This document shows, piece by piece, positions 7,114 to 38,694 of a DNA stretch of 64,000 nucleotides. The position numbers were made by a program, and so were the translations under genes. Location: NCBI GenBank assembly GCA_050692555.1, contig JBOGVS010000002.1:50651-114650 (forward strand). Direction: 5' to 3'. Each line of letters opens with the position of its first letter. Within the stretch, counting starts at the first letter, position 1. This stretch comes from Actinomycetota bacterium. GTDB taxonomy: Bacteria > Actinomycetota > UBA4738 > CALAEC01. Below the pieces are notes generated by a model. It saw only the letters and a list, made by a program, of their open reading frames with translations, was not told the DNA's origin and did not search any database.

Positions 7114-8468
7114 AGCACCGGGTCCTCGCCCGGCCGGCTGAGGATCCCGAACTCGGAGCGCCAGTACTTGGGGCTCGGCTTCATCGGACGCCAGTTGGGG
7201 AAGAACACCCGCTTGTCACGATCCAGGAGGTTCACCTTCTCCCCGTCGGTGGTGAACGTCCGCATGATGGGACGCCAGGACACGATCGCAGAGGCCTCCG
7301 GAGAAGGAGGCTCGGCGTGGTCGACGGCGAACAGCCCGAGCTGGCTCTCTTCGGCCAGGACGTGGTCGTCGGGGCCCAGGCGGACCGAGATGGCCGAGTA
7401 GGTCTGGTCCCTGAACGTCTCCAGGATCCGGATCAGAGCCGCTCCGCCCCGCCCGTCGGTTCGTGCCAGCGCCTCGGCCAGCGCTCGCACTGCGTCGTAG
7501 CCCTCCTGCTCCAGGCCGGCGGGGGCGTGCCCGGACGCTTGGGTGAAGGCTTCCCGGAACTCCTGCACCCGGGGCAGCATGTCCGCCCAGCCCGACCAGG
7601 TGTACGGGTAGCAGGCCACGATGCCCGGGCGCGCTGCTCCCTCCCTGGCGAACGCGGCCTGGAGGGCGTCGGCGGACAGGGCCAGCTGGGGTGGGTCCGG
7701 GATTCGGCCGAGCGCTCGGGACACCTCCACGGCGGTCAGCGTGGAGCCCAGGAACACCACGGCGTCTGCTCCCTGGGCGACCGAGGGAACGGTCCGGCGA
7801 GCTTCTCCCGCACCGACGGTTCCGGTGGCCGATGGGGCCGAGCCTTCCTCCGCCAGCGCTGCGGACATAACCGCCTGAGCCACATCTCCCCCCGGGCCCG
7901 GCTCCGTCAGGACCACGATCCGCTGGTGCCCTCGGTCCGCCACGAGATACCGGGCCAGCTTTCGGGCCTGCCACCTCAACGGGACGGAGGTCTGGAACGC
8001 GGACCGGAACAGGGCCCGGCCGCTGTACAGGTCGCCACCCAGGACCACCACCGGGACGCCGGCGGTCTCGATGTCCGTGCGGGCCTCGGAGACCGCCGCG
8101 GAGTCTCCCACCACCAGCACCGCTGCCGGCCGATCCACCATCGCCTGGCGGATCAGCGAGAGCGTCCGGGCCGGGTCGCCCAGGTCGTCGGCCACGCCGA
8201 GCTGGAGCGAACGGCCTTCCAGGCCGCCGGCCTCGTTGATCTCCAGCTGGGCCAGCCGCATCCCGTCGAGGAAAGAGGCGTCCGTCTCGGAGGTCGGGCC
8301 GCTCTCCGTTCCGATCACCCGCAACCGCACCGGCTCCGCCGATGCGGAGGGGGATCCTGCGGGTCCAGCCTCCGGTCGCCCGGATCCCCCGTTCTCACTA
8401 CCCGTGCAGGCGGAAGCGAGAAGAAGCGCCAATCCGACTGCCGCTGGGCGCCGCCGTTCGGGCCGCAA
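7110..8468 (-). CDS. ABC-transporter-type periplasmic substrate-binding lipoprotein (PBP1, Leu/Ile/Val-binding-like); orphan, no permease adjacent
   Basis: Lipoprotein signal MRPERRRPAAVGLALLLASAC, and the PBP type-1 fold is recognisable along the full length. It starts 1 nt after the lysS stop and its stop overlaps the His-rich gene stop by 4 nt. Confidence 0.7.
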   Translation of the reverse strand: MRPERRRPAAVGLALLLASACTGSENGGSGRPEAGPAGSPSASAEPVRLRVIGTESGPTSETDASFLDGMRLAQLEINEAGGLEGRSLQLGVADDLGDPARTLSLIRQAMVDRPAAVLVVGDSAAVSEARTDIETAGVPVVVLGGDLYSGRALFRSAFQTSVPLRWQARKLARYLVADRGHQRIVVLTEPGPGGDVAQAVMSAALAEEGSAPSATGTVGAGEARRTVPSVAQGADAVVFLGSTLTAVEVSRALGRIPDPPQLALSADALQAAFAREGAARPGIVACYPYTWSGWADMLPRVQEFREAFTQASGHAPAGLEQEGYDAVRALAEALARTDGRGGAALIRILETFRDQTYSAISVRLGPDDHVLAEESQLGLFAVDHAEPPSPEASAIVSWRPIMRTFTTDGEKVNLLDRDKRVFFPNWRPMKPSPKYWRSEFGILSRPGEDPVL

Positions 8469-8469
8469 C

Positions 8470-9963
8470 CTAGGTTTCTGGACGGAGCGTGGGGAACAGG
8501 ATGACCTCGCGGAGCGAAGGGGCGTCGGTGAGGACCATCAACAGGCGGTCCACCCCGAGTCCCAGTCCGCCGGCCGGGGGCATGCCGTGCTCCAGGGCGA
8601 CCAGGAACTCCTCGTCGTGCGGATGGGCCTCCTCGTCCCCGGCCGCCCGTTGGTCCCGCTGCATCTCGAACCTGCGGCGCTGCTCGTCGGGGTCGGTGAG
8701 CTCCGAGTAGGCCGGGGCGAGCTCCACCCCGCCCATCACCAGGTCGAAGTGCTCCGTGAGGTGAGGATCCTCCCGATGGGTCCTGGCCAGCGGCGAGACC
8801 TCGCGAGGGAAGTCCTTGACGATCGTGGGCTCGATCAGGGACTCCTCTACCAGCTTCTCGAACAGCTCGAGGACCAGCTTCCCGGCTCCCCAAGCCGGGT
8901 GGTAGCCGACCCCATGCTCGTCGCACAGAGCGTGGAGGTCGTCGATCGAGTCATCGATGGACACGGTCCGCCCGGTCGCCTCCGAGACCAGCTCGGTGAG
9001 GGTCGACCGGCGCCACGGCTTCTCCAGGTCCACCTCCGCTCCGCGCCAGGCAAAGGTGTGGCCTCCGTGCACCGCCACGCATGCCGCCTTCACCAGGCCC
9101 TCGACCAGGTCCATCATGTCCTCGTAGGAGCCGTAGGCCTGGTACGCCTCGAGCATCGTGAACTCCGGGAAGTGCGTGCGGTCGATCCCCTCGTTGCGGA
9201 AGTTCTTCCCCACCTCGTAGACCCGTTCGATACCCCCCACCAGAAGGCGCTTCAGATGGAGCTCCACGGCGATCCTCAGGTACACGTCGATGTCCAGCGC
9301 GTCGAAATGGGTGACGAACGGCCTGGCCAGCCCCCCACCGGGCACCGGCTGGAGGATCGGCGTCTCGACCTCCACGAACCCACGCTCGTCCAGGTGGGAG
9401 CGGAGCGCCGCGAGCATGCGGGCCCGGGCCGTCACGTGCTCTCTGACCTCGGGATTCGCCGCCAGGTCGAGGTACCGGCGCCGGTACCGGAGCTCCACGT
9501 CGCGGAGCCCGTGGAACTTCTCGGGCAACGGCCGCAGCGACTTGGTGAGCAACGTCAGACTGGAGGCCCGGACCGAGAGCTCCCCGCGTTTCGTCTTCAT
9601 CACCTCGCCCCCGGCGCCGACCCAGTCGCCAAGGTCCAGGTCCTCCAGGCCGGCGAAAGCGTCTGGGGCAAGGTCCTCCTCGGTGAGGAACAGCTGGATG
9701 GTGCCGGACCCGTCGCGGAGGACCCCGAACGCCAGCTTCCCATGGTGCCGGAGGGCCACCAGCCGTCCGGCCACCCGAACGGTCTGGCCCGAGGACTCGC
9801 CGGTGGCCAGTCCGTCGAACTTCTCGTGCAGCTCGGAAGCCATCGCGTCGCGGTCGAAGCGCAACGCGAATGGCTCCACGCCTCGTTCCCGGAGCTTGTC
9901 GAGCTTGTGCCGGCGAACCGCCAGGACATCCTCTGCGGGAGGCGGCTCCTGATCGTCCTTCAT
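8470..9963 (-). CDS. lysS: Lysine--tRNA ligase (class II)
   Basis: N-terminal OB anticodon-binding domain, then class II motifs (FRNEGIDRTHFPEFTMLEAY; GGLGLGVDRLLMVL). Confidence 0.95.
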   Translation of the reverse strand: MKDDQEPPPAEDVLAVRRHKLDKLRERGVEPFALRFDRDAMASELHEKFDGLATGESSGQTVRVAGRLVALRHHGKLAFGVLRDGSGTIQLFLTEEDLAPDAFAGLEDLDLGDWVGAGGEVMKTKRGELSVRASSLTLLTKSLRPLPEKFHGLRDVELRYRRRYLDLAANPEVREHVTARARMLAALRSHLDERGFVEVETPILQPVPGGGLARPFVTHFDALDIDVYLRIAVELHLKRLLVGGIERVYEVGKNFRNEGIDRTHFPEFTMLEAYQAYGSYEDMMDLVEGLVKAACVAVHGGHTFAWRGAEVDLEKPWRRSTLTELVSEATGRTVSIDDSIDDLHALCDEHGVGYHPAWGAGKLVLELFEKLVEESLIEPTIVKDFPREVSPLARTHREDPHLTEHFDLVMGGVELAPAYSELTDPDEQRRRFEMQRDQRAAGDEEAHPHDEEFLVALEHGMPPAGGLGLGVDRLLMVLTDAPSLREVILFPTLRPET

Positions 9964-10018
9964 GGTTGGGGGCCCCCGGCGATCGCAGCGAGCGAAGCGA
10001 GCGAGATCGTTGGGGTTT
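9964..10018 (-). repeat. About 55-nt conserved intergenic element, copy A. Sense sequence: AAAACCCCAACGATCTCGCTCGCTTCGCTCGCTGCGATCGCCGGGGGCCCCCAACC
   Basis: It fills the entire coaX-stop to lysS-ATG gap. A near-identical copy (about 90% identity) lies at 59544..59596 in sense orientation between the two trkA genes. It contains TCGCT tandem pentamers and a GGGGGCCCCC palindrome. Confidence 0.6.
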
Positions 10019-10786
10019 TCATTCGGCGTTCTTCTCGTAGACCAGGCGCAGCCCCTCCAGGGTGAGCCACGGCTCGTGGTGGTCGATGGAGCGACACTCA
10101 GCGATCACCATGGGCGCCAGGCCGCCGGTGGCGATCACGGTCGGCGAGCCGAGCTCCTTCGAGATCCGTTCCACCATGCCGTCGATCATCGAGGCGTAGC
10201 CGAATACCAACCCGGACTGCACGCTCTCAACGGTGTTCTTGCCGATCACCGAGCTGGGGGCGGCCAGCTCCACCAGCGGAAGGAGGGCCGTGTGATCGAA
10301 CAGGGCCCTGGCCGCCAGCTGGACCCCTGGGGCGATCGCTCCGCCCAGGTACTCGCCCTTCTCCGATACCACGTCGAAGGTGGTGGCCGTGCCGAAGTCC
10401 ACCACGATCGCCGGGCCGCCGTACCCGTCGAACGCCGCCAATGCGTTGACGATCCGGTCGGCGCCGACCTCCTTGGGGTTGTCGGTGGCCACGTGCACAC
10501 CGGTCTTCACTCCGGGTTCCACCACCACCGCCGGGAACCGAAAGTACCGGCTGACCATCTCTCGCATCGCCTGCGTGGACGAGGGGACGACGCTGGACAG
10601 CACCACTCCGGTCACGTTGCGGTCGAACGACAGGCCCTGTTGCTGGAGGAACCCTCCGAACAGGAGGGCCAGCTCGTCCGCGGTGCGCTCGGGCTCGGTG
10701 GCCATCCGCCACCGCCACGCCAGCTCGGCGTCGCGGAACACTCCCACCACCGTCTCGGTGTTCCCGATGTCGACCGCCAGGAGCAT
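10019..10786 (-). CDS. coaX: Type III pantothenate kinase
   Basis: MLLAVDIGNTETVVGVF (DIGNT motif) with the Bvg accessory factor/CoaX fold throughout. Confidence 0.9.
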   Translation of the reverse strand: MLLAVDIGNTETVVGVFRDAELAWRWRMATEPERTADELALLFGGFLQQQGLSFDRNVTGVVLSSVVPSSTQAMREMVSRYFRFPAVVVEPGVKTGVHVATDNPKEVGADRIVNALAAFDGYGGPAIVVDFGTATTFDVVSEKGEYLGGAIAPGVQLAARALFDHTALLPLVELAAPSSVIGKNTVESVQSGLVFGYASMIDGMVERISKELGSPTVIATGGLAPMVIAECRSIDHHEPWLTLEGLRLVYEKNAE

Positions 10787-17913: not shown

Positions 17914-18541
17914 CTAAGCTTCGATCAGGGCGGCGCGGGCGGGGGCGCCGTCGCCGCCCATCACCTTGAGCGGCAGGCACACGAACGTGTAGGTCCCCGG
18001 CTCCACCCTGGAGAGGTCCAAGCCCTCGACGATGATCGTCCCGCCGCCCAGCAGCGTGCGGTGAACCGGGTGGTCGGGTCCCTCGGTCTTCTCCACCGAC
18101 AGGAAGTCCACCCCGACCAGTTTCAGCCCGCGGTCCACGATCCACCGAGCGCCTTCGGGACTGACCGCCACGTAGTCGTCGGGGAACGCCGGCCGGGACT
18201 GGGTCCACAAATCGGAGTTCCGGGTCCGGCACAACAGCCGCTGCACGTCGTCGGGAAGCTGCAGGGCCTCGAGCTCCTTCGGGCCGACGGCGGAGGTCTG
18301 CCACCACGGCCTCGCCGAAGAACACCTCCAGATCCAGGCGGTCCACGGGATCGGCGCCGTCGATGAAATGAACGGGTGGGTCCACGTGGGTCCCGGTGTG
18401 GGAGCCCATGTGGATCTCGGACACGTTGGCCGGATCGCCGCGCTCCAGGAGCTTGGCTCGCTCGACCGTAACGCCGGGGTCCCCGGGCCAGGTCAGCAGG
18501 TCGTCCCCGATCCCCAGCGAGACGTCGATGATCCGGCTCAT
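17914..18541 (-). pseudogene. Cyclase-family protein (kynurenine formamidase-like), disrupted by a +1/-1 frameshift near 18285
   Basis: The N-terminal part MSRIIDVSLGIGDDLLTWPGDPGVTVE...HMGSHTGTHVDPPVHF...EVFFGEAVVADL is in one frame. The C-terminal part AVGPKELEALQLPDDVQRLLCRTRNSDLW...HPVHRTLLGGGTIIVEGLDLSRVEPGTYTFVCLPLKVMGG is in the adjacent frame. The two join cleanly if a single base is removed. Confidence 0.6.
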
Positions 18542-18638
18542 CCCCCCATCCTTTCCGGGCCCGGCTCCCTGGGTCGCCCACTGGCGAAACGGCCCCGCCC
18601 GCGGCAGGGTTATAGCAGGGCGCCCAGGGGAGGAGCCG

Positions 18639-19685
18639 ATGAAGGCAGTCACCCTCGTACCGCTGAAGTCGGGGACCGCCGAGCTCAGCGATGTCCCCGA
18701 GCCGGACCCCGCGGAAGGATCGGTGCTGGTGGAGGCCGTGGCGGTCGGCGTCGACGGCACCGACCAGGAGATCATCGACGGGCAGTACGGGGAGCCGCCG
18801 CCGGGGAAGGACCGCCTGGTCTTGGGCCATGAGTCCCTCGGCCGGGTCCTGGAGGCCCCCGCGGAAAGCGGGCTCTCAGAAGGCGACCTGGTGATCGGCA
18901 TCGTCCGGCATCCCGACCCGGTGCCCTGTCCACAGTGCGCCGCCGGCGAATGGGACATGTGCACCAACGGCCGGTACACCGAGCACGGGATCAAGGGGCG
19001 CGATGGGTTCATCAGGGAGCGCTACCGGCTGGAACCCGGCCGAGCCGTGAGGGCCGAGCCGTCGCTCGACGACCTGGCGGTGCTCACCGAGCCCACCAGC
19101 GTGGTGGCCAAGGCGTGGGACCACGTCGAGCGGATCGGCAGCCGGGCGACGTGGAAGCCTCGGCGCGCCCTGATCACCGGCGCCGGACCCATCGGCCTGT
19201 TCGCGGCGATGCTCGGGGCCCAGCGGGGGATCGAGATGCACGTGGTCGACAGGGTCAAGGAGGGCCCCAAGCCGGCGCTGGTCGAGGACCGGGGGTGGTG
19301 CTACCACTCCGACCTCGAGCAGACCGAGGAGGGCGGGTTCGACGTGGTGATCGAGTGCACGGGCGTCGGGGCGCTGGTGTTCCACGCCATCGAGCACACC
19401 GCTCCCGGAGGAGTGATGTGCCTCACCGGGATCGCCTCCAGCGACCGGAAGGTACCGCTGGACGCATCCCTGTTGAACAAGCACATGGTGCTCAACAACA
19501 CCGTGGTGTTCGGCTCCGTGAACGCCGGCCGGCGCCACTACGAGCAGGCCGCCGAGGCCCTGGCCAACGCCGATCCCGCCTGGCTGGAGCGGCTGATCAC
19601 CCGGCGGGTGCCGCTGGAGCGCTGGAGCGAGGCGCTGGAGCGGCAGCCCGACGACGTGAAGACCGTGATCGCCTTGGGGACCTGA
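18639..19685 (+). CDS. Zn-dependent MDR-family glucose 1-dehydrogenase-like (archaeal GDH type)
   Basis: Catalytic GHESLG motif, a structural Zn Cys cluster (PCPQCAAGEWDMC) and a Rossmann GAGPIGL motif. GGAGG precedes the ATG; the start was set at MKAVTLV inside the track ORF. Confidence 0.8.
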   Translation: MKAVTLVPLKSGTAELSDVPEPDPAEGSVLVEAVAVGVDGTDQEIIDGQYGEPPPGKDRLVLGHESLGRVLEAPAESGLSEGDLVIGIVRHPDPVPCPQCAAGEWDMCTNGRYTEHGIKGRDGFIRERYRLEPGRAVRAEPSLDDLAVLTEPTSVVAKAWDHVERIGSRATWKPRRALITGAGPIGLFAAMLGAQRGIEMHVVDRVKEGPKPALVEDRGWCYHSDLEQTEEGGFDVVIECTGVGALVFHAIEHTAPGGVMCLTGIASSDRKVPLDASLLNKHMVLNNTVVFGSVNAGRRHYEQAAEALANADPAWLERLITRRVPLERWSEALERQPDDVKTVIALGT

Positions 19686-19688
19686 GCC

Positions 19689-21800
19689 GTGGAGGCCGAG
19701 GAGAAGGTCGAGAAGCAGGGCGCTCAGGTCGACCTGCCCCCAGGGTCCATCCAGGTCCTCGAGGGCTCGACGTTCATGCTGTCCGACCCGCGAGGGGACG
19801 TGTTCGACGGGTCGGTGGCCGGCCTGTACCACGAGGACACCCGCCATCTGAACCGCTTCGTCCTGACGGTGAACGGAGAAGCCCCAACGGTGCTCACGTC
19901 CAACGAGGTGGACTACTACTCGGCGGTGTTCTTCCTCACCAACCCCGACCTCGACGGGATCGCCGGAAAGAACCTGACGATCCAACGGCACCGCTTCGTG
20001 GGGGACGGGATGCGGGAGACCATCACGGTCCGCAACCATCTCCGGGAGACGGTTCGCATCGAGCTTCGGTTGTCGGTGTGGGCGGACTTCGCCGACCTGT
20101 TCGAGGTCAAGGGGAAGGACTTCCGCAAGGCCGGCACCGCCGGCCGGTCCCACGACCCGGCGAACAGCACGCTGGGGTTCGACTACGAGCACGAGACGTT
20201 CCGGGCCGCCACCAGGGTCCGATCCAGCCAGCCCGCCCGGATCGACGGCGACGACCTGGTGTGGGACCTGGAGCTGGAGCCGCTCGGAACCTGGCACACA
20301 GGCGTGCTGGTGACGGTGAACGTGGACGAGGAGGTCATGGAGCCCACCCACGACACCTTCGGCCAGCCGGAGCGGAAGGCCAGCGCGGTGCTGAAGACGT
20401 GGCAGGACGAGGTCCCCCAGGTGACCGGGGGCTACGACGTCGTGTGGCACGTGATGGAGCGGTCGGTCGTGGACCTGGCCTCGCTGCGACTCCAGGCGTG
20501 TGTTGAGGGCAACGAGTTCTCGCTGCCCGCCGCCGGCCTCCCGTGGTTCATGGCCATCTTCGGCCGGGACACCCTGATCACCTCGTACCAGTCGATCTGG
20601 GTGGGCCCCGAGCTGGCCCGGGGCGCGCTCATCGCCCTGGCCGGCCTCCAGGGCAGGGAGATGAACGACTTCAAGGACGAGGAGCCGGGCAAGATCCTGC
20701 ACGAGATCAGGTTCGGGGAGCTGGCGTCGCTGGACCTCAAGCCCCACCGTCCGTATTACGGCTCGTCCGATTCCACTCCGCTGTGGCTGGTCCTGCTGTC
20801 CGAGTACTGGCGGTGGACCCGCGACGACGCCACCGTCCGGGACCTCAAGGACAACGCGCTCCGAGCCCTGGCATGGATCGACCGCTACGGCGACCTCGAC
20901 AGTGATGGTTATATCGAGTACAAGACGCGCTCCGAGCAGGGACTGCGCACGCAGGGCTGGAAGGACTCATGGAACGGCATCCTGTTCGCCGACGGCTCCA
21001 TGCCCGAGGTCCCCATCGCCCTGTGTGAGTTCCAGGGCTACGCCTACGACGCCAAGCAGCGAACCGCGGAGCTCGCCGAACAGGTGTGGAAGGACCCCGA
21101 GCTCGCGGCCCGGCTGCGCCGGGAGGCCCGGGAGCTCTTCGAGCGCTTCAACCGGGACTTCTGGATCGACGAGCGAGGCGGGTACTACGCCCTTGGCCTG
21201 GACAGGGACAAGCGCCAGATCGACTCGCTGACCTCCAACATGGGCCACCTGTTGTGGTCGGGCATCGTCCGTGAGGACCGGGCGCCGATCGTGGCCCGGC
21301 AGCTGCTGGGTGACGGTATGTGGTCGGGGTGGGGTGTTCGCACCATGTCGTGGGACGACGCCGGGTACAACCCCATCGGCTACCACATCGGGCCGGTGTG
21401 GCCCCACGACAACTCCATCATCTCCGCGGGCCTGTACCGATACGGCCTCCGCGAGGAGGCCAACCGGATCGCGGTGGCCATGCTGGAGGCGTCCTCGTAC
21501 ACGGAGTTCCGTCTCCCGGAGGTGTTCGCCGGCTATTCGCGCAGCGAGGCGCCGTTCCCGGTGCGCTACCCCACCGCCTCCAGCCCTCAGGCGTGGGCCA
21601 CCGGAGCCCCGTTCCTGTGGTTCCGGCTCGCCCTGGGACTGGAGCTGGGAGAAGGCGAGCTGACCATCGACCCCCTGGCCCCCAAGGAGCTCGGCCGGAT
21701 GGGGCTCCAGGGCATCCACGCCCTCGGTGAGCGCTGGGACCTGTGGGCCGAGGGGTCCGACGGGGAGATCACCAGAGCGAAGGGAGGAAATCACCGATGA
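19689..21800 (+). CDS. Amylo-alpha-1,6-glucosidase / GDE_C-family glycoside hydrolase (archaeal-type debranching-enzyme-like)
   Basis: GDE N-terminal domain and an (alpha/alpha)6 catalytic domain with FMAIFGRDTLITS, YYGSSDSTPLW and GYHIGPVWPHDN motifs. Confidence 0.8.
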   Translation: MEAEEKVEKQGAQVDLPPGSIQVLEGSTFMLSDPRGDVFDGSVAGLYHEDTRHLNRFVLTVNGEAPTVLTSNEVDYYSAVFFLTNPDLDGIAGKNLTIQRHRFVGDGMRETITVRNHLRETVRIELRLSVWADFADLFEVKGKDFRKAGTAGRSHDPANSTLGFDYEHETFRAATRVRSSQPARIDGDDLVWDLELEPLGTWHTGVLVTVNVDEEVMEPTHDTFGQPERKASAVLKTWQDEVPQVTGGYDVVWHVMERSVVDLASLRLQACVEGNEFSLPAAGLPWFMAIFGRDTLITSYQSIWVGPELARGALIALAGLQGREMNDFKDEEPGKILHEIRFGELASLDLKPHRPYYGSSDSTPLWLVLLSEYWRWTRDDATVRDLKDNALRALAWIDRYGDLDSDGYIEYKTRSEQGLRTQGWKDSWNGILFADGSMPEVPIALCEFQGYAYDAKQRTAELAEQVWKDPELAARLRREARELFERFNRDFWIDERGGYYALGLDRDKRQIDSLTSNMGHLLWSGIVREDRAPIVARQLLGDGMWSGWGVRTMSWDDAGYNPIGYHIGPVWPHDNSIISAGLYRYGLREEANRIAVAMLEASSYTEFRLPEVFAGYSRSEAPFPVRYPTASSPQAWATGAPFLWFRLALGLELGEGELTIDPLAPKELGRMGLQGIHALGERWDLWAEGSDGEITRAKGGNHR

Positions 21801-22723
21801 GGTTCGGGATCGTGGGACTGGGGCGCATGGGCGCAAACCTCGCCCGCCACGCAATGGAGAAGAGCCATCAGGTGGTCGGGTATGACCCGGCCGAGCAGGC
21901 GCGCAAGGAACTCGCCGGGGAGGGCATGGAGCCGGCGGCCTCGCTGGAGGAGCTTGCCGGGAAGCTGGAGCCGCCGCGGGTGGTCCTCCTGTACGTCCCG
22001 CATGGGGACATCACCGAGCAGGTCTGCCGAGACATCCGTCCCGTGCTTACTGAGGGCGACATCGTGATGGACGGAGGGAACTCCCACTGGAAGGACTCCG
22101 AGCGCCGGTACGGCTTCTTCGCCGAGACGGGAATCAAGTTCCTCGACTGCGGGACCAGCGGCGGCGTCGATGGAGCCCGCACCGGGGCGTGCTTCATGGC
22201 CGGCGGCCCCAGGGAGGCCTACGAGGTGGTGGAGCCTCTCCTCAAGGACCTGGCCATCGACGAGCTCGGCGTGGTCCACGCCAGCGAGGCCCCGGGCAGC
22301 GGGCACTTCGTCAAGCTGGTGCACAACGCCATCGAGTTCGGGATGAACCAGTCGATCGCCGAGGGCGTGGAGATGCTGATGCGCTCGGGGTACCCAATCG
22401 ATCTCCCGGCCGTATTCGTCAACTGGAACCACGGCTCGGTGATCCGAAGCTGGCTGGTCGAGCTCATGGGCCAGCAGCTGCAGAAGTACCTGGCCGAGTG
22501 GGACCAACTCTCCACGTACGTCGAGGACACCGAAGAGGTGAAGTGGGTGCTGAACTGGGCGATGGACGAGGACATCCCCTCTCCGGTGATCGCTCTCTCC
22601 CAACAGGCCCTCCTGCAGTTCCGGGACCTCGACTGGCCCGCAGCGAAGGCGCACGCGCTGCTGCGCAACGCCTACGGCGGCCACCCGATCCTCAAGGTGG
22701 GCGACACGAAGCCGCGCGCCTGA
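21797..22723 (+). CDS. 6-phosphogluconate dehydrogenase-like (decarboxylating, short NAD-dependent YqeC/Gnd-like form)
   Basis: MRFGIVGLGRMGANLARH...LDCGTSGGVDGARTGACFMAGG...HFVKLVHNAIEFGMNQSIAEG. ATGA overlap with the preceding gene. Confidence 0.8.
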   Translation: MRFGIVGLGRMGANLARHAMEKSHQVVGYDPAEQARKELAGEGMEPAASLEELAGKLEPPRVVLLYVPHGDITEQVCRDIRPVLTEGDIVMDGGNSHWKDSERRYGFFAETGIKFLDCGTSGGVDGARTGACFMAGGPREAYEVVEPLLKDLAIDELGVVHASEAPGSGHFVKLVHNAIEFGMNQSIAEGVEMLMRSGYPIDLPAVFVNWNHGSVIRSWLVELMGQQLQKYLAEWDQLSTYVEDTEEVKWVLNWAMDEDIPSPVIALSQQALLQFRDLDWPAAKAHALLRNAYGGHPILKVGDTKPRA

Positions 22724-22731
22724 AGGTCCGC

Positions 22732-23286
22732 CTACTCGAGGGCCGCGGCGGCGAACCCCACCTCGAAGCGGCGGCACCACACCACGGCCGTGGAGTACCG
22801 GTCCAGGTCGACGTCCTCCGGGAGATCGTAGTTCTGGTCGCCGATGTTGCCCTTCAGCACGCCGAGATCGACGAAGTCCCGGTCGTAGCCGTGCCAGTCG
22901 TCGGTCCCCGCCGGGGTCTTAGCCGAGAGATACACGACCAGGTCCGGGCCGTTGGAGGTCTCGAAGTCGTCGAACCGCAGGAACCGCCCGCCGGTCGCGG
23001 TCTCCACGATCAGGGCCCGGCCGGTGGACTGGTGCTCCAGGCTGATGAACTCGCCCTCGGCAACGGTGGACGGCCCGGGCATCCCGGCGGCCGTTCCCGG
23101 ATCCTCCTCAGCAGCGGTCTCCGTTTGTGCCGCGGGGGCACCCGGAAGGGCCTCGTTCACCCGGTCCTCGGTGAACAGGCGGTCCGGCCGGAACCACAGG
23201 AACCCGAACACCAGGGCCGCGAGGCCCACGACTCCCACGACCGCGGTGCGTCCCGGATGCCGCCTGATCGCCCCGGTGACGTCCAT
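22732..23286 (-). CDS. DM13-domain membrane-anchored protein (putative electron-transfer domain)
   Basis: N-terminal TM, then EGEFISLEHQSTGRALIVETATGGRFLRFDDFETSNGPDLVVYLS, which matches the DM13 domain. Confidence 0.65.
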   Translation of the reverse strand: MDVTGAIRRHPGRTAVVGVVGLAALVFGFLWFRPDRLFTEDRVNEALPGAPAAQTETAAEEDPGTAAGMPGPSTVAEGEFISLEHQSTGRALIVETATGGRFLRFDDFETSNGPDLVVYLSAKTPAGTDDWHGYDRDFVDLGVLKGNIGDQNYDLPEDVDLDRYSTAVVWCRRFEVGFAAAALE

Positions 23287-23398
23287 TGCTCTCGACCACC
23301 TTACGTTCGGGACGTTGCGGATTCCTTACCGTGCCCGGGATCACCGGGCTCAGAAGGGCGGCAAGGTCTCTGAAACAGTTCCGGGTGACAATGGAGCC

Positions 23399-24084
<686 letters not shown>

Positions 24085-25308: not shown

Positions 25309-27081
25309 CTACAGACCGGCGGCGATCACCGCGCGGGTCACCCGATCGGCGATCGAGGGGAGCGGAGACTCCCGGCCGACCCACGGGTCACCGTCGAAGT
25401 ACAGCCCGAAGATCCGCTCCGCGGTGCGGGTGGCCAGGGCCTGGGTGGTGAGCGTGGGATTGGGACCCCCCAGGGAGTTGGCCAGCGCCGAGTTGTCCGC
25501 CACGAACAGGCGCTTGACCCACCGGGCCTCGGCGTTCTCATCGAGGACCGAGTCGTCCTCGCCGATCCCCATGCGCATCGTGGACTGGACGTGGAGGATC
25601 AGGGGCGGCCAGTTCAGCCGGTGGACATCGGTGGCCCCCGCCGCCCGGAGCAGCTCCACGGCCTTTCCCACGAGGAACTCCCGGTTCCGGAGGGTCCTGG
25701 CCGTTCGCTCGCGCGGGTGGAACTCCACCCGGGCCACGGGGCCGTGCTCGTCGGAAGGAAACGCCTGCGACAGCGTGACCCGGTTCTGGGCCTCGACGTC
25801 GTCGTCGGTGATCACCAGGACGTTCAGGATCCGGTTGACGTCGGACACCATCCTCTTGAGAGCCCCGCCGACGATCCGGCCCGAGGTGTCGGCGCCGCCG
25901 GCGGCGGGCAGGCCGTTGTCGTAGAACCCGGCCATCCCCGCGTCGCTGAACGTCGCCGAGAACGTCTGCAGTGCGGGAGGGAGCCCCACGTTCTCCAGGC
26001 CACCGCGCCCGGGGAAGTCGCACCGGGCCGAGGAGCCCGGGCCCTTGCTGGATCCGGTGTCGAACGGCATCACTCCGATGACCCAGTCGAAGAAATGGTC
26101 GGTGTAGCCGCGGCCCACCCAGTCGTTGGGGTTCGGGAGCCCGCTGTTGAACCACAGCCGGGGGTTCTCGGTGCAGCCGCCGGCCATGACCACCACCCGG
26201 GCGTCCTCGGTGACCTGCTCACCGCTCTCCCCCACCCGCCAGGTCACGCCCGTGGCCGCCGGAACCCCGTCCTCCTCGGCGGTGTGGATCTGCACCACGA
26301 ACGCGTCGGGGATCAGCTCGATCGAACGTCCCCCGCGGGCCCATGACGAAGCAGTGAGGGCCATGGGGATGTAGCTGTTGTCGGTGGACCGCTTGGCGAA
26401 CAGGTTCCGGGGCGCGTTGATCGGCTCCATACATCCCTGGAAGCAGTAGCCGCAGAACGTGCACCCCCGAGCCTTCGGATACACGAGCTGCCGCGCGTCG
26501 CTGGTCCGGCCCGCGGTCCCACCCGGCTGGAGGATGGCGTTCTCCTGCGGGCGGAACGAGTCGCGGGTGGTGTCCTTGGATACCTGCACGGGGAGCCCCA
26601 GGCCCTCGGCGCCGCGGAAGAACTCCTGCTCCTTGGTGCCCATGGCCGCGGTCTGGACGGGGAGGGTCTCCTCCACCCACTCGTAATACGGAACCAGCGA
26701 GCGGTAGGAAAAGGGAAACTCGTGAGCCCGGTCGTAGGCGTCACGGTCGGGTCGGTCGTAGCCGAGGAACACGCCGGGGGTGGCCCGGGGCGAGTTCCCG
26801 TAGTAGTGCTGAGTGGTACCGCCCACCCCGGAGAGCTGCCACAGGAAGGAGCTCTGGGGGATCTCCCGGAGCCACGCGGGCTTGGTCCGGTCGGCGGGTC
26901 CGAACCGGAAGTACCCGCCCAGCGGGTTGTTGGCGTCGTTCTCGAAGTGGGTCCATTCGCTCCGAGGGTCGGAGTGACGAGGCCCCGCCTCCAGCACCAG
27001 GACGTCGAGGCCCCGCTGGGCCAGCTCCTTCGCGGCCACCGCGCCGCCACCCCCGGCTCCGATCACGATGACGTCGCGCAT
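25309..27081 (-). CDS. GMC-family FAD-dependent oxidoreductase (gluconate 2-dehydrogenase flavoprotein-like)
   Basis: MRDVIVIGAGGGGAVAAKELAQRGLDVLVLEAG FAD fold, with GMC C-terminal motifs. Its stop codon abuts the convergent HK stop at 25308/25309. Confidence 0.85.
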   Translation of the reverse strand: MRDVIVIGAGGGGAVAAKELAQRGLDVLVLEAGPRHSDPRSEWTHFENDANNPLGGYFRFGPADRTKPAWLREIPQSSFLWQLSGVGGTTQHYYGNSPRATPGVFLGYDRPDRDAYDRAHEFPFSYRSLVPYYEWVEETLPVQTAAMGTKEQEFFRGAEGLGLPVQVSKDTTRDSFRPQENAILQPGGTAGRTSDARQLVYPKARGCTFCGYCFQGCMEPINAPRNLFAKRSTDNSYIPMALTASSWARGGRSIELIPDAFVVQIHTAEEDGVPAATGVTWRVGESGEQVTEDARVVVMAGGCTENPRLWFNSGLPNPNDWVGRGYTDHFFDWVIGVMPFDTGSSKGPGSSARCDFPGRGGLENVGLPPALQTFSATFSDAGMAGFYDNGLPAAGGADTSGRIVGGALKRMVSDVNRILNVLVITDDDVEAQNRVTLSQAFPSDEHGPVARVEFHPRERTARTLRNREFLVGKAVELLRAAGATDVHRLNWPPLILHVQSTMRMGIGEDDSVLDENAEARWVKRLFVADNSALANSLGGPNPTLTTQALATRTAERIFGLYFDGDPWVGRESPLPSIADRVTRAVIAAGL

Positions 27082-27824
27082 CAGCGGCCCTTGGTGCCCT
27101 CAGCCCGACGGCGGCCACCGTAGTAGCCGCGGAACTCCTCCCAGCCCTCGGCGGGGACCAGGCGTCCCGGCTGGTACCGAGTGAGATCCCAGCCCACCGG
27201 CCGCTCCGTCAGCTGCCGGGTGGCGGGGTCGAGTGCGTGCCACTCCCCGAAGGACACGAAGGTGGCGAACCCTGGGAGGATGCCGGCGGTGAACCGAAGG
27301 GCCCCGGAGGTCTCGTCGTCGCCTGGCGTGGCCTCGAGTCGCCGGAACACCTCGGCCTTCTCCGCGAAGGCCAGGCGGGCGAAATGCGAGGGGAACGGCC
27401 CGCCGGCGGCCACCGGGTTCACCTGCGCCGCGGTGGCGTTCAGGAGGTTGGCCACCGCCCCGGAGAGCGGCACGGTGGCGTCGTTGCCCTGGCCGATGTC
27501 CGGTGCGGGGACGAACCGGTCGAGGTTGGAGATCAGGTTCTCGGTCCCCTTCGCGGCGATGCCCCCCGGCTCCGCGGTGCTCTCCCCCTGGGCCACCGAG
27601 TACTCGTCGGGTCCCGGGACCACGAAGGCGATGAGCCCGTTGATGGTGTCCCGGGTGAGGTCCAGGTCCTGTGCCGAGGCCACGTCCAGCATGCCCCGGG
27701 CCCGAAGAACCCCCGGGAGCTGGGCCAACACCGCCCCGACCCCCACCATCCCGGCCCGGGCCAGAAAGGCCCGGCGGGTCAGCGATCGGTCTGAGAGCTC
27801 CTGGCCGTCGGGGGCGGCGGGCAT
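27081..27824 (-). CDS. Gluconate 2-dehydrogenase subunit 3-family small subunit, Tat-secreted
   Basis: Twin-arginine leader LTRRAFLARAGMVGVGAVL; about 247 aa. ATGA overlap with the GMC gene. The start was chosen at MPAAPDGQ inside the track ORF 27081..28094. Confidence 0.65.
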   Translation of the reverse strand: MPAAPDGQELSDRSLTRRAFLARAGMVGVGAVLAQLPGVLRARGMLDVASAQDLDLTRDTINGLIAFVVPGPDEYSVAQGESTAEPGGIAAKGTENLISNLDRFVPAPDIGQGNDATVPLSGAVANLLNATAAQVNPVAAGGPFPSHFARLAFAEKAEVFRRLEATPGDDETSGALRFTAGILPGFATFVSFGEWHALDPATRQLTERPVGWDLTRYQPGRLVPAEGWEEFRGYYGGRRRAEGTKGR

Positions 27825-27876
27825 CGTCGCCGAAGAGTTCGCCGCCGGTGCTTGGATTCCTCCCGGGGAGCCCGGC

Positions 27877-28362
27877 TCACGGCAGGGACCGCTCCATTTC
27901 GACCTCCAGGAGGGACGGATGAGAGCGGAGAGGCTTGGAACGCCCGGTCGGCTTGAATCCGGCCCGCCGGTACAGCTCGGTGGCCGCCTGGTTCGTCTCC
28001 GTGACCCACAGCCGGGCCTGGGTCCATCCTTCGGCCCCAGCCCAGCCCAGTGCCGCCTCCAGGAGCCGGGTGGCAAACCCCGTCCGGCGGGCATCCGGGA
28101 CCACCCACATTCCCCAGATCATCGCCGGACCCCCTGGCGTTTCCTCGGAGCATCCAGTCATGCCCACCCACGCTCCGTCGAGGATGGCAACGAAGATCGG
28201 GGTCCGGGCCGTCGCCCGCCAGCTCTCCTCCGGAAGCGCTTCCTCCTCGCGAAGGCTCCTGCCGAACGCGGAGGGAGCGTCCATCAGGGCCCGTAGCCGG
28301 AGGGTTCGGAGCTCCTCCCACTCCTCGGGGTGGACGCGCCGTACTTCGGCGGAGCCGGACAT
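27877..28362 (-). CDS. GNAT-family N-acetyltransferase
   Basis: The acetyl-CoA-binding motif (WVVPDARRTGFATRLLEAAL...LWVTETNQAATELYRRAGF) is present. It lies immediately downstream of folE. Confidence 0.7.
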   Translation of the reverse strand: MSGSAEVRRVHPEEWEELRTLRLRALMDAPSAFGRSLREEEALPEESWRATARTPIFVAILDGAWVGMTGCSEETPGGPAMIWGMWVVPDARRTGFATRLLEAALGWAGAEGWTQARLWVTETNQAATELYRRAGFKPTGRSKPLRSHPSLLEVEMERSLP

Positions 28363-37551: not shown

Positions 37552-38694
37552 CTAGGACCCTGCCGTCACCGGCACCAGTGACAGAAGAGCGTCCTCCAGG
37601 ATCAGCCGGGCGTTGAGGTTGGTCTCGTCGGCCAGCGCGGCGCGGGCTTCCTCCAGGTCGGCGATGGCCTTGGCGGCCTCCGGCGCCGGAACGTCGGGCA
37701 GGCTCGCCACGCGGTCCAGGTTGATGGCCCACGACTCCGTTCCCCCCGCCCGCACCAGCAGGGCGTCTCGGAACCACGCTTGGAGAGCCAGCAACGCGGC
37801 GTCGAGGAACTCCCGCTCGGCTCGCCGCTCCTGGCGATGGTGCCGGGCCTGGAGCCGCCGGACCGCCGCGCGGTACTGGTCGACGGGGCGACCGGTCTCC
37901 GGATCCAGGAACGGCTCGAGATCGCCTTCGAGCCGCTTCGCCAGACGGTCCCGGTATCCCGCCGCCCCCTCGGTGAGCCCCTCCACCGCGCGGAGGGCGC
38001 CGGCCTCTCCGGCGGCCACCTCGGTCAGCGCGTGGAGGGCCGCGTCCCGGAACGCCAGACCTTCGGGGTCCGTGGCCACCCGTCGGGCCCGGCCCAGGTT
38101 CCCACCGGCCAGCCGAGCTGCGAGCCGGGCCCGGGGCTCCTCCACGCCCTCGCCCAGCAGGGTCTCCACGACGAACGCCTCGGACAGAGGCCGGAACGTC
38201 ACCGTGTGGCACCGCGACACGATGGTCTCCGGGATCTCGTGCGGCCGCGCCGACGAGAGAAGGAACACCGTGTCGGCGGGCGGTTCCTCAAGGGCCTTCA
38301 GCAGGACGTCGGCGGCCTCCTCGGTCATCCGATCGGCCTGCTCGACGCGGAAGATCTTCCGGCGGGGCTCGGGCGCGGTGAGGTAAGCCCGGGCCACCAG
38401 CCACCTCGCGGTGCCGTCCTCGTCGGGGCCCTCTCCCACCCGGATGTCCCGCCCCTCCGGCTCCACCAGCACCAGGTTGGGATGGCGGTCGCCGAGGGCC
38501 AGGCGGCAGTCCCGGCATTCCCCGCACCCCTCTCGTTCGCACACCAGCGCCGCGGTGAATGCACGAGCGGCGAGCTGCTTCCCCGAGCCCTCCGGACCGG
38601 CGAACAGGTACGCGTGATGGGGCCGCGCCGCCGCCCGCTCGAGGAACGCCACGGCATCCGGCTGGCCGGGGACCCCACGCAGGACCGCGCTCAC
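37552..38694 (-). CDS. holB: DNA polymerase III subunit delta' (HolB)
   Basis: HAYLFAGPEGSGKQLAARAF...CGECRDCRLALGDRHPNL...VLLKALEEPPADTVFLL is clamp-loader AAA+. The GTG start overlaps the tmk stop as GTGA. Confidence 0.8.
   Translation of the reverse strand: MSAVLRGVPGQPDAVAFLERAAARPHHAYLFAGPEGSGKQLAARAFTAALVCEREGCGECRDCRLALGDRHPNLVLVEPEGRDIRVGEGPDEDGTARWLVARAYLTAPEPRRKIFRVEQADRMTEEAADVLLKALEEPPADTVFLLSSARPHEIPETIVSRCHTVTFRPLSEAFVVETLLGEGVEEPRARLAARLAGGNLGRARRVATDPEGLAFRDAALHALTEVAAGEAGALRAVEGLTEGAAGYRDRLAKRLEGDLEPFLDPETGRPVDQYRAAVRRLQARHHRQERRAEREFLDAALLALQAWFRDALLVRAGGTESWAINLDRVASLPDVPAPEAAKAIADLEEARAALADETNLNARLILEDALLSLVPVTAGS

Follow-up and report, generated by a model that had tools for sequence, protein, structure and literature searches.

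Why does an uncultured actinobacterium encode a dehydrogenase for glucose, a glycoside hydrolase, and a 6-phosphogluconate dehydrogenase in immediate succession, and do these genes specify one metabolic pathway? The genes are located in a 64,000-nucleotide stretch of DNA that was analyzed as a whole (the window; ~69% GC). The features of the locus are as follows:

17914..18541, minus strand, frameshifted cyclase-family gene (PF04199, arylformamidase-like), with Pfam Cyclase matches in two frames
18542..18638, no strand, divergent intergenic region of 97 bp, flanked by the start of the cyclase gene (18541, minus strand) and that of the GDH gene (18639)
18639..19685, plus strand, gene 1, predicted Zn-dependent medium-chain (MDR) glucose 1-dehydrogenase (GDH), archaeal type, 348 aa
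19689..21800, plus strand, gene 2, predicted GH176-family glycoside hydrolase, 703 aa
21797..22723, plus strand, gene 3, predicted short-form NAD+-dependent decarboxylating 6-phosphogluconate dehydrogenase (GND, gnd_rel), 308 aa

The three genes form a co-directional and translationally coupled operon; the coordinates, the 3-nt gap, and the ATGA overlap are all as originally predicted. Gene 1 starts with the ATG at 18639, with GGGGAGGAG 4 nt upstream, and ends with the TGA at 19683-19685; this is followed by 'gcc' and then by the GTG of gene 2 at 19689, that is, by a spacer of 3 nt. The ATG of gene 3 (21797-21799) and the TGA of gene 2 (21798-21800) share the sequence ATGA, an overlap that indicates translational coupling; AAGGGAGGAA is located upstream of the gene 3 start, and the gene ends with the TGA at 22721-22723. 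All three genes have a Shine-Dalgarno-like site; their third-position GC contents (0.92, 0.92, and 0.89 for genes 1, 2, and 3) identify the three ORFs as genuine coding frames. The operon is delimited by the divergent cyclase-family gene upstream and by a convergent DM13 gene downstream that ends 8 nt past gene 3. The 97-bp divergent region is presumed to be the promoter region, with no sigma-70-like promoter or conserved motif detected in it. Relative to L081 (a 97% relative), the cyclase gene has an 11-bp deletion between window positions 18289 and 18288; an intact 212-aa copy adjoins the GDH in L081-L083, L086, L088, L172, and the P0037 contig, and in L090 an intact 212-aa copy is found within a gnd-pgi operon. 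Whether this conserved divergent neighbor is part of the system is uncertain.

The family labels initially given to the three proteins agree with their Pfam domain calls. For gene 1, the description as an archaeal-type glucose dehydrogenase is borne out by Glu_dehyd_C (228.5 bits, 8.3e-68; also ADH_N) and by its best solved relatives, all of which are archaeal glucose dehydrogenases (Haloferax mediterranei 2b5v, 1.7e-45; Saccharolobus 2cd9; Thermoplasma 3wic). It is closest to the Haloferax enzyme and retains all four catalytic Zn ligands (D39/H64/E65/E151 align with 38/63/64/150 in HmGDH); the structural lobe contains D93/C97/C100/C108, the Rossmann motif reads GAGPIG, and D204, located after β2, suggests NAD rather than NADP as cosubstrate. 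Relatives in its cluster are named 'glucose 1-dehydrogenase' by NCBI. Gene 3 (NAD_binding_2, 133.1 bits; also 6PGD) exceeds the cut-offs of TIGR00872 (318.1 vs 297.2) and NF007161 (330.3 vs 271), as expected for the short NAD-dependent enzyme that had been proposed. Its best solved relative is Mycobacterium tuberculosis Gnd2 (8ihe, 3e-58), and its motifs include GLGRMG, D30 after β2 (which suggests NAD), N95, S121-G-G, K173/H176/N177/E180, and R217; a MAG at NCBI encodes an identical protein (P0121) that has the same NAD-dependent 6PGDH name.

The CAZy family of gene 2 had been left between GH133, GH63, and others; the family can be assigned, and it is neither of those named. The sole PDB sequence match is 7VMA (E=5e-89, residues 27-683; ~31% identity, with the gene 2 protein ~80 residues longer), the structure of TgAMY from Thermococcus gammatolerans on which GH176 was founded, and this match places gene 2 in GH176 by sequence. 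GH133 was rejected: the GDE_C profile scores at its threshold (21.4 vs 21, with no single stretch passing alone; GDE_N_bis scores 170.2 bits and MGH1-like_GH 44.9 bits), and no solved glycogen debranching enzyme (GDE) chain matches the sequence at E<=0.01. The protein has an N-terminal β-sandwich and an (α/α)6 barrel and lacks a hydrophobic N-terminal stretch typical of a signal peptide; 7VMA is also top-ranked by Foldseek (4.2e-32) with a low-confidence model (mean pLDDT 64.7). Twelve residues (R293, D294, H338, E339, W424, D426, Y565, H566, W571, E611, Q634, and W636) recur unchanged in 7VMA and do not vary across alignment A1, and every position aligned with a residue published as catalytic acid, base, or 'fixer' Asp or as a glucose/kojibiose contact is conserved. 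The sole well-characterized GH176 member is an inverting exo-α-1,2-glucosidase with an exo-type pocket, and the family includes the kojibiose hydrolase of Arthrobacter humicola A8F5 (bioRxiv 10.64898/2026.07.01.735942). The active-site residues of the kojibiose hydrolase that occur in gene 2 also occur in TgAMY, so they do not define the substrate; the branch to which gene 2 belongs is large and uncharacterized (>7000 relatives at E<=1e-10).

Taken together, we judge it somewhat more probable than its negation that the operon encodes the cytoplasmic breakdown of an α-glucoside via a gluconate shunt into the pentose phosphate pathway. Gene 2, as a GH176 α-glucosidase that is exo-acting and probably inverts the anomer, would free β-D-glucose from an intracellular α-glucoside (candidates are trehalose, a kojibiose-type 2-O-α-glucoside, a compatible solute bearing a glucosyl group, or a short glucan (glycogen) stub); the β anomer, the substrate acted on in EC 1.1.1.47, would be handed to the MDR glucose 1-dehydrogenase and oxidized via glucono-1,5-lactone to gluconate with reduction of NAD(P)+. 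A gluconokinase encoded elsewhere is then predicted to yield 6-phosphogluconate, which the NAD+-dependent short 6PGDH would convert to ribulose 5-phosphate and CO2. The route is incomplete as encoded, since a Pfam scan of ~50 GC3-selected window ORFs identified no gluconokinase, gluconolactonase, zwf, or pgl; tblastn of the window with an approximate E. coli GntK query also identified no gluconokinase. Thus, the original prediction of a glycosidase that supplies a hexose for oxidation toward a pentose is strengthened by the comparative linkage described below but falls short of a complete route among the scanned window ORFs.

Do the same genes occur together in other genomes? The trio is present in L081, L084/L085, and L086/L087, with GH15 equivalents in L174 and L170 and a rearranged set in L090/L092, so the predicted association recurs; however, it is modular, not a fixed unit. 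Within the clade, the genes always lie in one and the same folP-folE islet: GDH-GH176-GND is found in L086/L087 as in the window, L081 and L084/L085 have this set together with a Na+/H+ exchanger, GDH-GH176 without GND is found in L082, L083, L001, L172, and the P0037 contig, and GDH-GND-Na+/H+ exchanger without GH176 in L088/L089; GND is missing in five of the 10 sister lineages examined, and one has GDH-GND only. In the identity matrices of GDH and GH176, GND-bearing and GND-free variants are intermixed, implying that GND was lost or gained more than once. Elsewhere, the linkage recurs independently: L174 encodes GH15(TREH_N)-GDH-GND in an unrelated context, L170 encodes GDH (41% identity)-GND-GH15-like, and in L090/L092 a GDH-GH176 pair is located beside a divergent gnd(TIGR00872, 392 bits)-pgi-cyclase-HAD-AKR operon in which the gnd is non-orthologous. 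In L096, a gluconokinase gene (TIGR01313, 125.8 vs 113.75) directly follows the GDH, showing that at least one lineage directs what the GDH makes to 6-phosphogluconate.

In metagenomes, the slot after the GDH is often occupied by a different glycosidase. Among 57 informative loci (GDH-anchored metagenome loci with >=600 bp downstream), 31 have a GH15 trehalase-like gene as the next gene after the GDH, in the same orientation, and a GH15 or GH176 gene is present in 41 of 80 GDH-anchored loci. GH15 occurs in 38 loci in 0.48 Mb vs only 2 across a 1.49-Mb GH176-anchored control, that is, it is enriched ~60-fold beside this GDH family; OtsA-like GT20 genes are among the neighbors in these lineages. 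A literature search found no published description of the GDH-GH15 pairing, so the pair in soil metagenomes is an observation made here and not an established system. From the perspective of gene 2, neither a GDH nor a GND is close to most of the GH176 homologs found in 80 reference genomes (GDH in only 2, a distant gnd in only 2).

These distributions bear on whether gene 3 belongs to the unit, that is, whether the functional unit is the GDH-glycosidase pair and gnd is an ordinary pentose-phosphate gene co-transcribed in a variable islet. The GND-free sister lineages, the prevalence of the two-gene GDH-GH15 module (gnd is present in only 2 of the 80 GDH-anchored loci), and close GND orthologs (67-80% identity) in unrelated contexts without any GDH (L171, L173) agree with this explanation, as does the identity of the window GND, which is higher to L173, L088, and L174 (76-80%) than to the trio-bearing L085 and L086 (70-72%). 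However, GDH-GND recurs without GH176, with GH15, and with a non-orthologous gnd, the GDH-gluconokinase pair leads to the substrate of GND, and the ATGA overlap couples translation of gnd; we regard restriction of the unit to the pair as unlikely.

Gene 2 might instead be an amylo-α-1,6-glucosidase that trims the glucose stubs of limit dextrins in glycogen debranching, with genes 1 and 3 disposing of the glucose. Its homologs are publicly named 'glycogen debranching enzyme' or 'amylo-alpha-1,6-glucosidase', and TgAMY reportedly acts on branched dextrins, with a preference for branched maltodextrin. TgAMY also has a short loop 3 and a more open pocket; gene 2 aligns to 7VMA with no indel after H338/E339, the segment of loop 3 in the kojibiose hydrolase, so its loop is likewise short. 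Against this, direct α-1,6 bond cleavage by TgAMY was never demonstrated, and its blocked pocket is atypical for debranching enzymes (bioRxiv 10.64898/2026.07.01.735942); glgP, glgX, glgB, and pgm are not nearby in any examined locus; and other lineages fill the post-GDH position with trehalase-like GH15 and have OtsA-like neighbors. We consider debranching quite improbable.

Still less probable is that the MDR enzyme oxidizes a sugar phosphate (e.g., glucose 6-phosphate), another aldose, or a polyol, which with gnd would give a kinase-free, Zwf-independent oxidative pentose phosphate branch. GDH-GND without a glycosidase in L088/L089, the pgi that adjoins gnd beside the GDH in L090, and the lack of a kinase among the scanned window ORFs would fit, and gene 1 passes no NCBIfam equivalog model. 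However, its catalytic residues and active-site substitutions (V, E, and L in place of N89, Q150, and H297 of the Saccharolobus enzyme) match those of the Haloferax glucose dehydrogenase, and more than half of the GDH-anchored loci have a glucose-releasing glycosidase and one has a gluconokinase. Chance adjacency in an islet that also holds unrelated genes in varying content (ECF sigma/anti-sigma genes, DM13, a two-component system, and a GMC oxidoreductase) is disfavored as hardly credible, given the translational coupling, the combination of the same functions in at least three unrelated contexts with non-orthologous parts, and the GH15 enrichment.

How does the proposed gluconate shunt compare with known systems? 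Gene 1 shares the Glu_dehyd_C fold family and conserved Glu114- and Asn307-equivalent sugar-binding positions with the archaeal MDR enzymes (Haloferax mediterranei, Saccharolobus solfataricus, Thermoplasma), and its Asp/His/Glu/Glu catalytic Zn set with that of Haloferax; unlike these, it is bacterial, and unlike the Haloferax enzyme its structural lobe has three Cys and an Asp. The archaeal enzymes serve non-phosphorylative/semi-phosphorylative Entner-Doudoroff pathways, whereas the partners of gene 1 are a glycosidase and a 6PGDH, with no gluconate dehydratase or KDG aldolase nearby. Gene 3 resembles the TIGR00872 short forms (M. tuberculosis Gnd2 8IHE, Gluconacetobacter 6VPB) in length (~300 aa), catalytic K/H/N/E motif, and Rossmann domain with Asp after β2; its sub-branch has Phe181 (IEFG) instead of Tyr (IEYG) and Arg217 (SVIRSWL) instead of the Gly or Ser of the solved enzymes. 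Gene 2 is two-domain and similar to TgAMY over its full length; unlike gene 2, the A8F5 kojibiose hydrolase has a capped pocket, and neither characterized enzyme is reported with a dehydrogenase partner, whereas gene 2 adjoins two. With GH133, the glucosidase of the eukaryotic-type glycogen debranching enzyme, it shares the (α/α)6 barrel and a weak GDE_C match but has no transferase domain. The GDH-GH15 pairs contain the same GDH family (55-67% identity) with, as predicted here, an inverting glucose-releasing α-glucosidase directly downstream and gnd sometimes appended (L174), but their glycosidase is GH15 (clan GH-L) rather than GH176.

The closest pathway analogy is the cytoplasmic gluconate shunt by which methanotrophs process storage-derived glucose, proven by mutants and enzymology (Rozova et al., 2021; PMC8062543). 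There, an NAD(P)-dependent glucose 1-dehydrogenase converts free glucose that stems from intracellular glycogen or trehalose to gluconate, glucokinase is bypassed, and 6-phosphogluconate is the point of entry into the pentose phosphate or Entner-Doudoroff pathway; next to one of the shunt genes is amy, which encodes a glucan hydrolase, as the glycosidase adjoins the GDH here. The methanotroph GDH is an SDR enzyme and its linked genes are gntK and amy (PMC8062543), whereas the operon encodes a predicted GDH of the archaeal MDR type linked to gnd and GH176, with the kinase unlinked. If our proposal is correct, the operon would be a local version of this known gluconate shunt.

The operon comprises three genes on the forward strand, and two genes flank it:

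17914-18541, reverse strand: a cyclase-family (PF04199) gene that diverges upstream from its start at 18541.
18639 (ATG) to 19683-19685 (TGA), forward strand: gene 1, a predicted MDR glucose 1-dehydrogenase (GDH); GGGGAGGAG precedes the start.
19689 (GTG) to 21798-21800 (TGA), forward strand: gene 2, a predicted GH176 hydrolase, separated from gene 1 by a spacer of 3 nt.
21797 (ATG) to 22721-22723 (stop), forward strand: gene 3 (gnd), a predicted short NAD-dependent 6PGDH (GND); its start overlaps the stop of gene 2 (ATGA), and AAGGGAGGAA precedes it.
Immediately downstream, convergent: a DM13 gene, the end of which lies 8 nt past gene 3.

When the starts, stops, spacers and flanks were inspected, the coordinates and spacings in the original prediction proved exact; the three genes make up one operon. 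The window is GC-rich (~69%), and high GC creates many spurious ORFs in it; third-position GC contents of 0.92, 0.92 and 0.89 (genes 1, 2 and 3, respectively) mark these three as real coding frames. The GC3-based gene caller that we used is crude, that is, it missed or over-extended some genes; the key coordinates were all checked by tblastn or against precomputed gene calls. A scan of positions 18200-23500 detected neither promoter nor terminator, and an alignment of the cyclase-GDH intergenic regions of six loci revealed no conserved motif.

An islet of variable content, which interrupts the stretch from folP to folE-ftsH, contains the operon; the flanks of the islet form a conserved actinobacterial block (tilS-hpt-ftsH-folE ... 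folP-folB-folK-panC-coaX-lysS). The other genes in the islet (ECF sigma/anti-sigma pairs, DM13, a two-component system and a GMC oxidoreductase) differ in their presence among relatives. The GMC-family FAD oxidoreductase, of 590 aa, adjoins the secreted-type DM13 gene, and after it comes a 337-aa ORF that matches nothing in Pfam (both within 25309-28094, reverse strand); this pair is present in L081 and L083 (two of the homologous loci, L001-L174, collected from reference genomes and metagenome contigs), and is absent from the other sister loci. Elsewhere in the window, an uninterrupted 673-aa ORF (38691-40712, reverse strand) joins an MFS transporter (residues 35-392) to a thymidylate kinase domain (residues 466-652); this could be a gene fusion, or else two genes that no stop codon separates.

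The original prediction asked for the family of the hydrolase to be checked (GH133, GH63 or other); neither GH133 nor GH63 is borne out, and similarity, fold and catalytic residues all place gene 2 in CAZy GH176. In Pfam, residues 25-205 match GDE_N_bis (170 bits), MGH1-like_GH is matched partially (profile positions 171-328 of 356, 44.9 bits), and GDE_C scores 21.4 bits (cut-off 21), no individual stretch reaching the cut-off; no matching NCBIfam model was found. The sole PDB match in a phmmer search is 7VMA (E=5e-89, 302.6 bits; query residues 27-683 on residues 9-607 of the 620-residue chain), that is, the Thermococcus gammatolerans enzyme TgAMY, which is the founding member of GH176 (bioRxiv 10.64898/2026.07.01.735942, a July 2026 preprint). 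GH133 (amylo-alpha-1,6-glucosidase) was rejected on the threshold-level GDE_C score and the lack of any match to GDE chains in the PDB at E<=0.01; GH63 (mannosylglycerate/glucosylglycerate hydrolases and YgjK) was rejected on the partial MGH1-like_GH match and the lack of any sequence match to solved GH63 chains. An AF2 model built from an 11-sequence alignment (mean pLDDT 64.7, active-site loops below 50) was used for the top-level fold match alone and not for analysis of the pocket; it has strands through residues 21-217 followed by helices through residues 225-650, and Foldseek ranks 7VMA first (4.2e-32), far ahead of the rest (GH63 YgjK, ~1e-16). The likeness to GH63 is at the level of fold only, consistent with the proposal that GH176 and GH63 share clan GH-G (bioRxiv 10.64898/2026.07.01.735942).

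Twelve residues of gene 2 (R293, D294, H338, E339, W424, D426, Y565, H566, W571, E611, Q634 and W636) are identical in the alignment with 7VMA and invariant among eleven relatives. The counterparts of the catalytic acid, base and 'fixer' Asp are D426, E611 and D294, with the mapping to the A8F5 enzyme (the kojibiose hydrolase from Arthrobacter humicola) made by motif only; identical counterparts also exist for the subsite -1 residues published for A8F5, for the Trp platform (three residues) and for a His/Glu pair at subsite +1. Because these residues are common to both studied enzymes, they identify subsite -1 as one for an alpha-glucoside; they do not specify the aglycone. Gene 2 and 7VMA align without insertion or deletion in the stretch that follows H338/E339, which means that loop 3 is as short as that of TgAMY. 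By eye, the N-terminus lacks a hydrophobic stretch typical of a signal peptide, so gene 2 probably acts in the cytoplasm.

Sequence searches found more than 7,000 relatives of gene 2, and CAZy lists 4,892 GH176 members, of which just two enzymes have been studied, one with a disputed activity (bioRxiv 10.64898/2026.07.01.735942). Almost every member bears the name 'glycogen debranching enzyme', passed on by annotation transfer. This annotated role could be correct; direct proof of the alpha-1,6 debranching claimed for TgAMY was never given, and the activity does not match the blocked pocket; the second studied enzyme, from Arthrobacter, is an inverting exo-alpha-1,2-glucosidase that hydrolyzes kojibiose (bioRxiv 10.64898/2026.07.01.735942).

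Domain content and zinc ligands place gene 1 among the MDR glucose 1-dehydrogenases (Glu_dehyd_C, EC 1.1.1.47), a prediction from its sequence: it contains Glu_dehyd_C (228.5 bits; cut-off 34.9) and ADH_N, and the six best PDB sequences all come from glucose dehydrogenases of archaea (2b5v of Haloferax mediterranei first, 1.7e-45, then Saccharolobus and Thermoplasma). Its relatives carry the NCBI name 'glucose 1-dehydrogenase'; an NCBIfam equivalog model for glucose dehydrogenase either does not exist or was not passed. D39, H64, E65 and E151 align with the catalytic zinc-ligand positions of the H. mediterranei enzyme, which we take to be Asp/Cys38, His63, Glu64 and Glu150; H64, E65 and E151 are invariant in our alignment of GDH relatives, and D39 is replaced by Cys in L088. 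That GDH (L088, 8917-9963; a variant without GH176) carries Cys for Asp at the first ligand position (GVCGTD), as does Saccharolobus GDH, unlike all other members of the clade. The same substitution is the sole difference within the aligned stretch between 2b5w, the D38C mutant entry, and 2b5v. At the positions of Saccharolobus N89, Q150 and H297, gene 1 has V, E and L, matching the Haloferax enzyme; however, unlike that enzyme, it keeps the Cys-rich lobe (D93, C97, C100 and C108). Asp204, located after beta2, suggests NAD+ as the cofactor.

Gene 3 exceeds the curated cut-offs of TIGR00872 (318.1 vs 297.2) and NF007161 (330.3 vs 271), and aligns with Mycobacterium tuberculosis Gnd2 and other short 6PGDHs; at K173, H176, N177, E180 and S121-G122-G123 the alignment shows the same residues in 8ihe, 6xeq and 6vpb. 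Score and catalytic residues thus predict a short, NAD+-dependent, decarboxylating 6PGDH (TIGR00872, EC 1.1.1.343), and D30 after beta2 fits NAD+. The residues that bind the substrate phosphate are Tyr191, Arg287 and Arg446 (sheep numbering). The sub-branch that includes gene 3 has Phe181 throughout at the Tyr191 position, where the solved short forms have Tyr, so we considered a non-phosphorylated substrate as a possibility; the sub-branch also has Arg217 at another phosphate-binding position, where the solved short forms carry Gly or Ser and the long forms Arg287.

Within the clade of the window (GH176 identity 72-97%), every locus lies in the folP-folE islet next to the divergent cyclase gene, and the trio is modular:

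Gene arrangements in the clade of the window.
GDH-GH176-GND: the window and L086/L087.
GDH-GH176-GND-Na+/H+ exchanger: L081 and L084/L085.
GDH-GH176 only: L082, L083, L001, L172 and the contig encoding protein P0037.
GDH-GND-Na+/H+ exchanger, without GH176: L088/L089.

The exchanger that follows gnd is CPA2-type (L081, 13040-14209; L084, 4045-5346; L088, 10925-12130); in the window DM13 is directly next, and a 35%-identical exchanger is located at 63013-63999. A recent insertion of gnd, limited to the 97% relative, is ruled out by the presence of the trio in contigs of 75-78% identity (L084-L087), and is also countered by the GDH-GND arrangement without GH176 in L088/L089. In the identity matrices, lineages with and without gnd interleave (e.g., the nearest loci to L082, a locus without gnd, are L086 and L085, both with gnd). 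The GND of the window shares 76-80% identity with GNDs from different contexts (L173, L088 and L174) and only 70-72% with those of the sister trios L085 and L086, which share 83% identity. Interleaving lineages and a GND that is nearer to those from other contexts imply repeated loss, gain or replacement, and hint that gnd was separately acquired or replaced at the same position.

As a family, GH176 is not tied to these partners: among 80 reference genomes anchored on GH176 (48-75% identity), GDH is adjacent in only two and a distant gnd occurs in two. Clustering of the neighbors in the same 80 genomes found no universal partner; the recurrent neighbors are a GT4 glycosyltransferase and SDR dehydrogenases. 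An SDR dehydrogenase directly adjoins GH176 in L066, L071, L074, L076, L079 and L080 (Gaiellales) and in L018, L044 and L048 (Micromonosporaceae). The SDR cluster is heterogeneous: the Gaiellales members are YdfG-like, located immediately upstream of GH176 with a GT4 gene downstream, and one member belongs to a loose 'glucose 1-dehydrogenase' subfamily (the Plantactinospora SDR passes the NCBIfam model for that SDR subfamily, 226.7 vs 215).

When GDH is the anchor, the usual partner is GH15. We collected 80 metagenome loci (GDH identity 55-67%), 57 of which have >=600 bp downstream of GDH; in 31 of the 57, GH15 is immediately downstream on the same strand (e.g., L094, L097, L112-L114, L116, L118, L120, L122, L124-L127, L133, L137, L142, L145, L149, L151, L154, L158-L160 and L164). 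Anywhere in the 80 loci, GH15 is found in 38, GH176 in eight and either in 41. GH15 occurs in 2 loci in a control of 1.49 Mb of GH176-anchored loci, that is, it is ~60-fold enriched beside GDH. In soil metagenome contigs the GH15 after GDH carries a TREH_N domain. The best NCBIfam match of this GH15 is the archaeal trehalase TreH1, below the cut-off, and a search of PDB sequences found no match, so the label trehalase-like rests on sub-cut-off similarity to TreH1. A second GH176 branch, 37-38% identical to that of the window, occurs in L114 (2772-5051), L125 (1580-5000), L153 (1-1915) and L155 (1232-4678), paired head-to-tail with GT4; the pair diverges from GDH-GH15, and an OtsA-like GT20 gene is close by. 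The GH176-GT4 pair looks like a synthesis/hydrolysis pair for an alpha-glucoside. GH176 and GH15 are present together in these four loci, so they are not simply redundant.

The same functions also recur with other parts. L174 encodes GH15(TREH_N)-GDH-GND; L170 encodes a 41%-identical GDH, GND and then a GH15/glucodextranase-like gene, which was called as three pieces (7946-10367; 92, 392 and 254 aa) and may be frameshifted. In L090/L092, GDH-GH176 lies beside a divergent operon, gnd-pgi-cyclase-HAD-AKR, the gnd of which is non-orthologous (32-41% identity, method-dependent) and still above the TIGR00872 cut-off. In L096, the gene directly after GDH (64% identity to the GDH of the window) encodes a gluconokinase (1410-1694), which passes TIGR01313 (125.8 bits) although it is cut by the contig end; this is the only GDH-kinase linkage among ~170 loci. 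Thus, the trio does recur in other genomes, with the same parts in L081 and L084-L087 and functional equivalents in L174, L170 and L090/L092, but as a unit it is not fixed, since some sister loci have GDH-GH176 or GDH-GND only.

Across these loci the constant element is the MDR GDH, most often accompanied by an alpha-glucosidase that releases glucose and belongs to an inverting family. GH15 is an established anomer-inverting family. Inversion has been reported for GH176 (bioRxiv 10.64898/2026.07.01.735942), and beta-D-glucose is the substrate of glucose 1-dehydrogenases. Variably attached to them are 6PGDH and gluconokinase, the enzymes through which gluconate enters the pentose phosphate pathway. 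We therefore read the operon as a gluconate shunt: gene 2 would hydrolyze an alpha-glucoside to beta-glucose, gene 1 would oxidize this to gluconolactone and hence gluconate, an unlinked kinase would make 6-phosphogluconate, and gene 3 would yield ribulose 5-phosphate. The first, second and fourth steps are proposed from family membership and linkage; we infer the kinase step and the substrate. GDH and 6PGDH are the shunt genes present in the 64-kb window: a Pfam scan of ~50 GC3-selected ORFs, including those near the operon, found no gluconokinase, lactonase, zwf, pgl or sugar transporter, and a tblastn search of the whole window with an E. coli GntK sequence was also negative for gluconokinase.

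The cyclase-family neighbor might be the missing lactonase. Intact 212-aa copies flank GDH in every sister locus examined, and homologs are found within the L090 gnd-pgi operon and close to the GH176 gene of L002 and L003; in the window, an 11-bp deletion between 18289 and 18288, relative to L081 (the 97% relative), splits the gene into two frames, so that it is a pseudogene or reflects an assembly error.

Other explanations could account for parts of the arrangement. The gnd gene, present in some lineages of the clade and missing from others, could be a passenger; GH176 could debranch glycogen, as annotated; and the GDH could act on a sugar phosphate. Each of these fits the recurrent linkage of non-orthologous genes less well than the shunt does, and the same linkage tells against adjacency by chance.

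Taken together, the loci tentatively suggest a widespread module in soil Actinomycetota and their neighbors, a composite reading that we consider possible but doubtful in its entirety: an inverting alpha-glucosidase (mostly trehalase-like GH15, GH176 here) would pass beta-D-glucose straight to an archaeal-type MDR GDH, often with NAD-6PGDH or gluconokinase, so that stored or compatible-solute glucosides (e.g., trehalose or kojibiose-type) might be mobilized by a gluconate shunt and not by glucokinase and G6PDH; the GH176 branch might have a specificity new to the family, and the cyclase neighbor might supply the lactonase. One element is much firmer: the genomic context makes it very likely that the product of this actinobacterial GH176 branch is free beta-glucose that is oxidized on the spot, a concrete functional clue for one large branch of a family that is mostly annotated by transfer. 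If the broader reading is true, uncultured soil actinobacteria draw on internal sugar reserves by a gluconate shunt, which would matter for how dormancy, recovery from desiccation and carbon use are modeled.

All three operon proteins fall into known families, and their names in public annotation pipelines are already close to those used here; the shunt itself and the three enzyme families are known, and nothing is overturned. In the literature searched, we found no description of a GDH-GH15 or GDH-GH176 cluster; the GH176 assignment of the large actinobacterial branch with the contextual clue to its product, the pairing of an archaeal-type GDH with GH15/GH176 glucosidases, and the modular attachment of 6PGDH or gluconokinase are likewise undescribed there. 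A gluconate shunt for internal glucosides would strike a specialist as reasonable more than surprising. Methanotrophs provide the direct precedent: they convert storage-derived glucose by way of a GDH and GntK into the ED or pentose phosphate pathway (PMC8062543); however, their GDH is SDR-type, whereas that of the window is an archaeal-type MDR enzyme.
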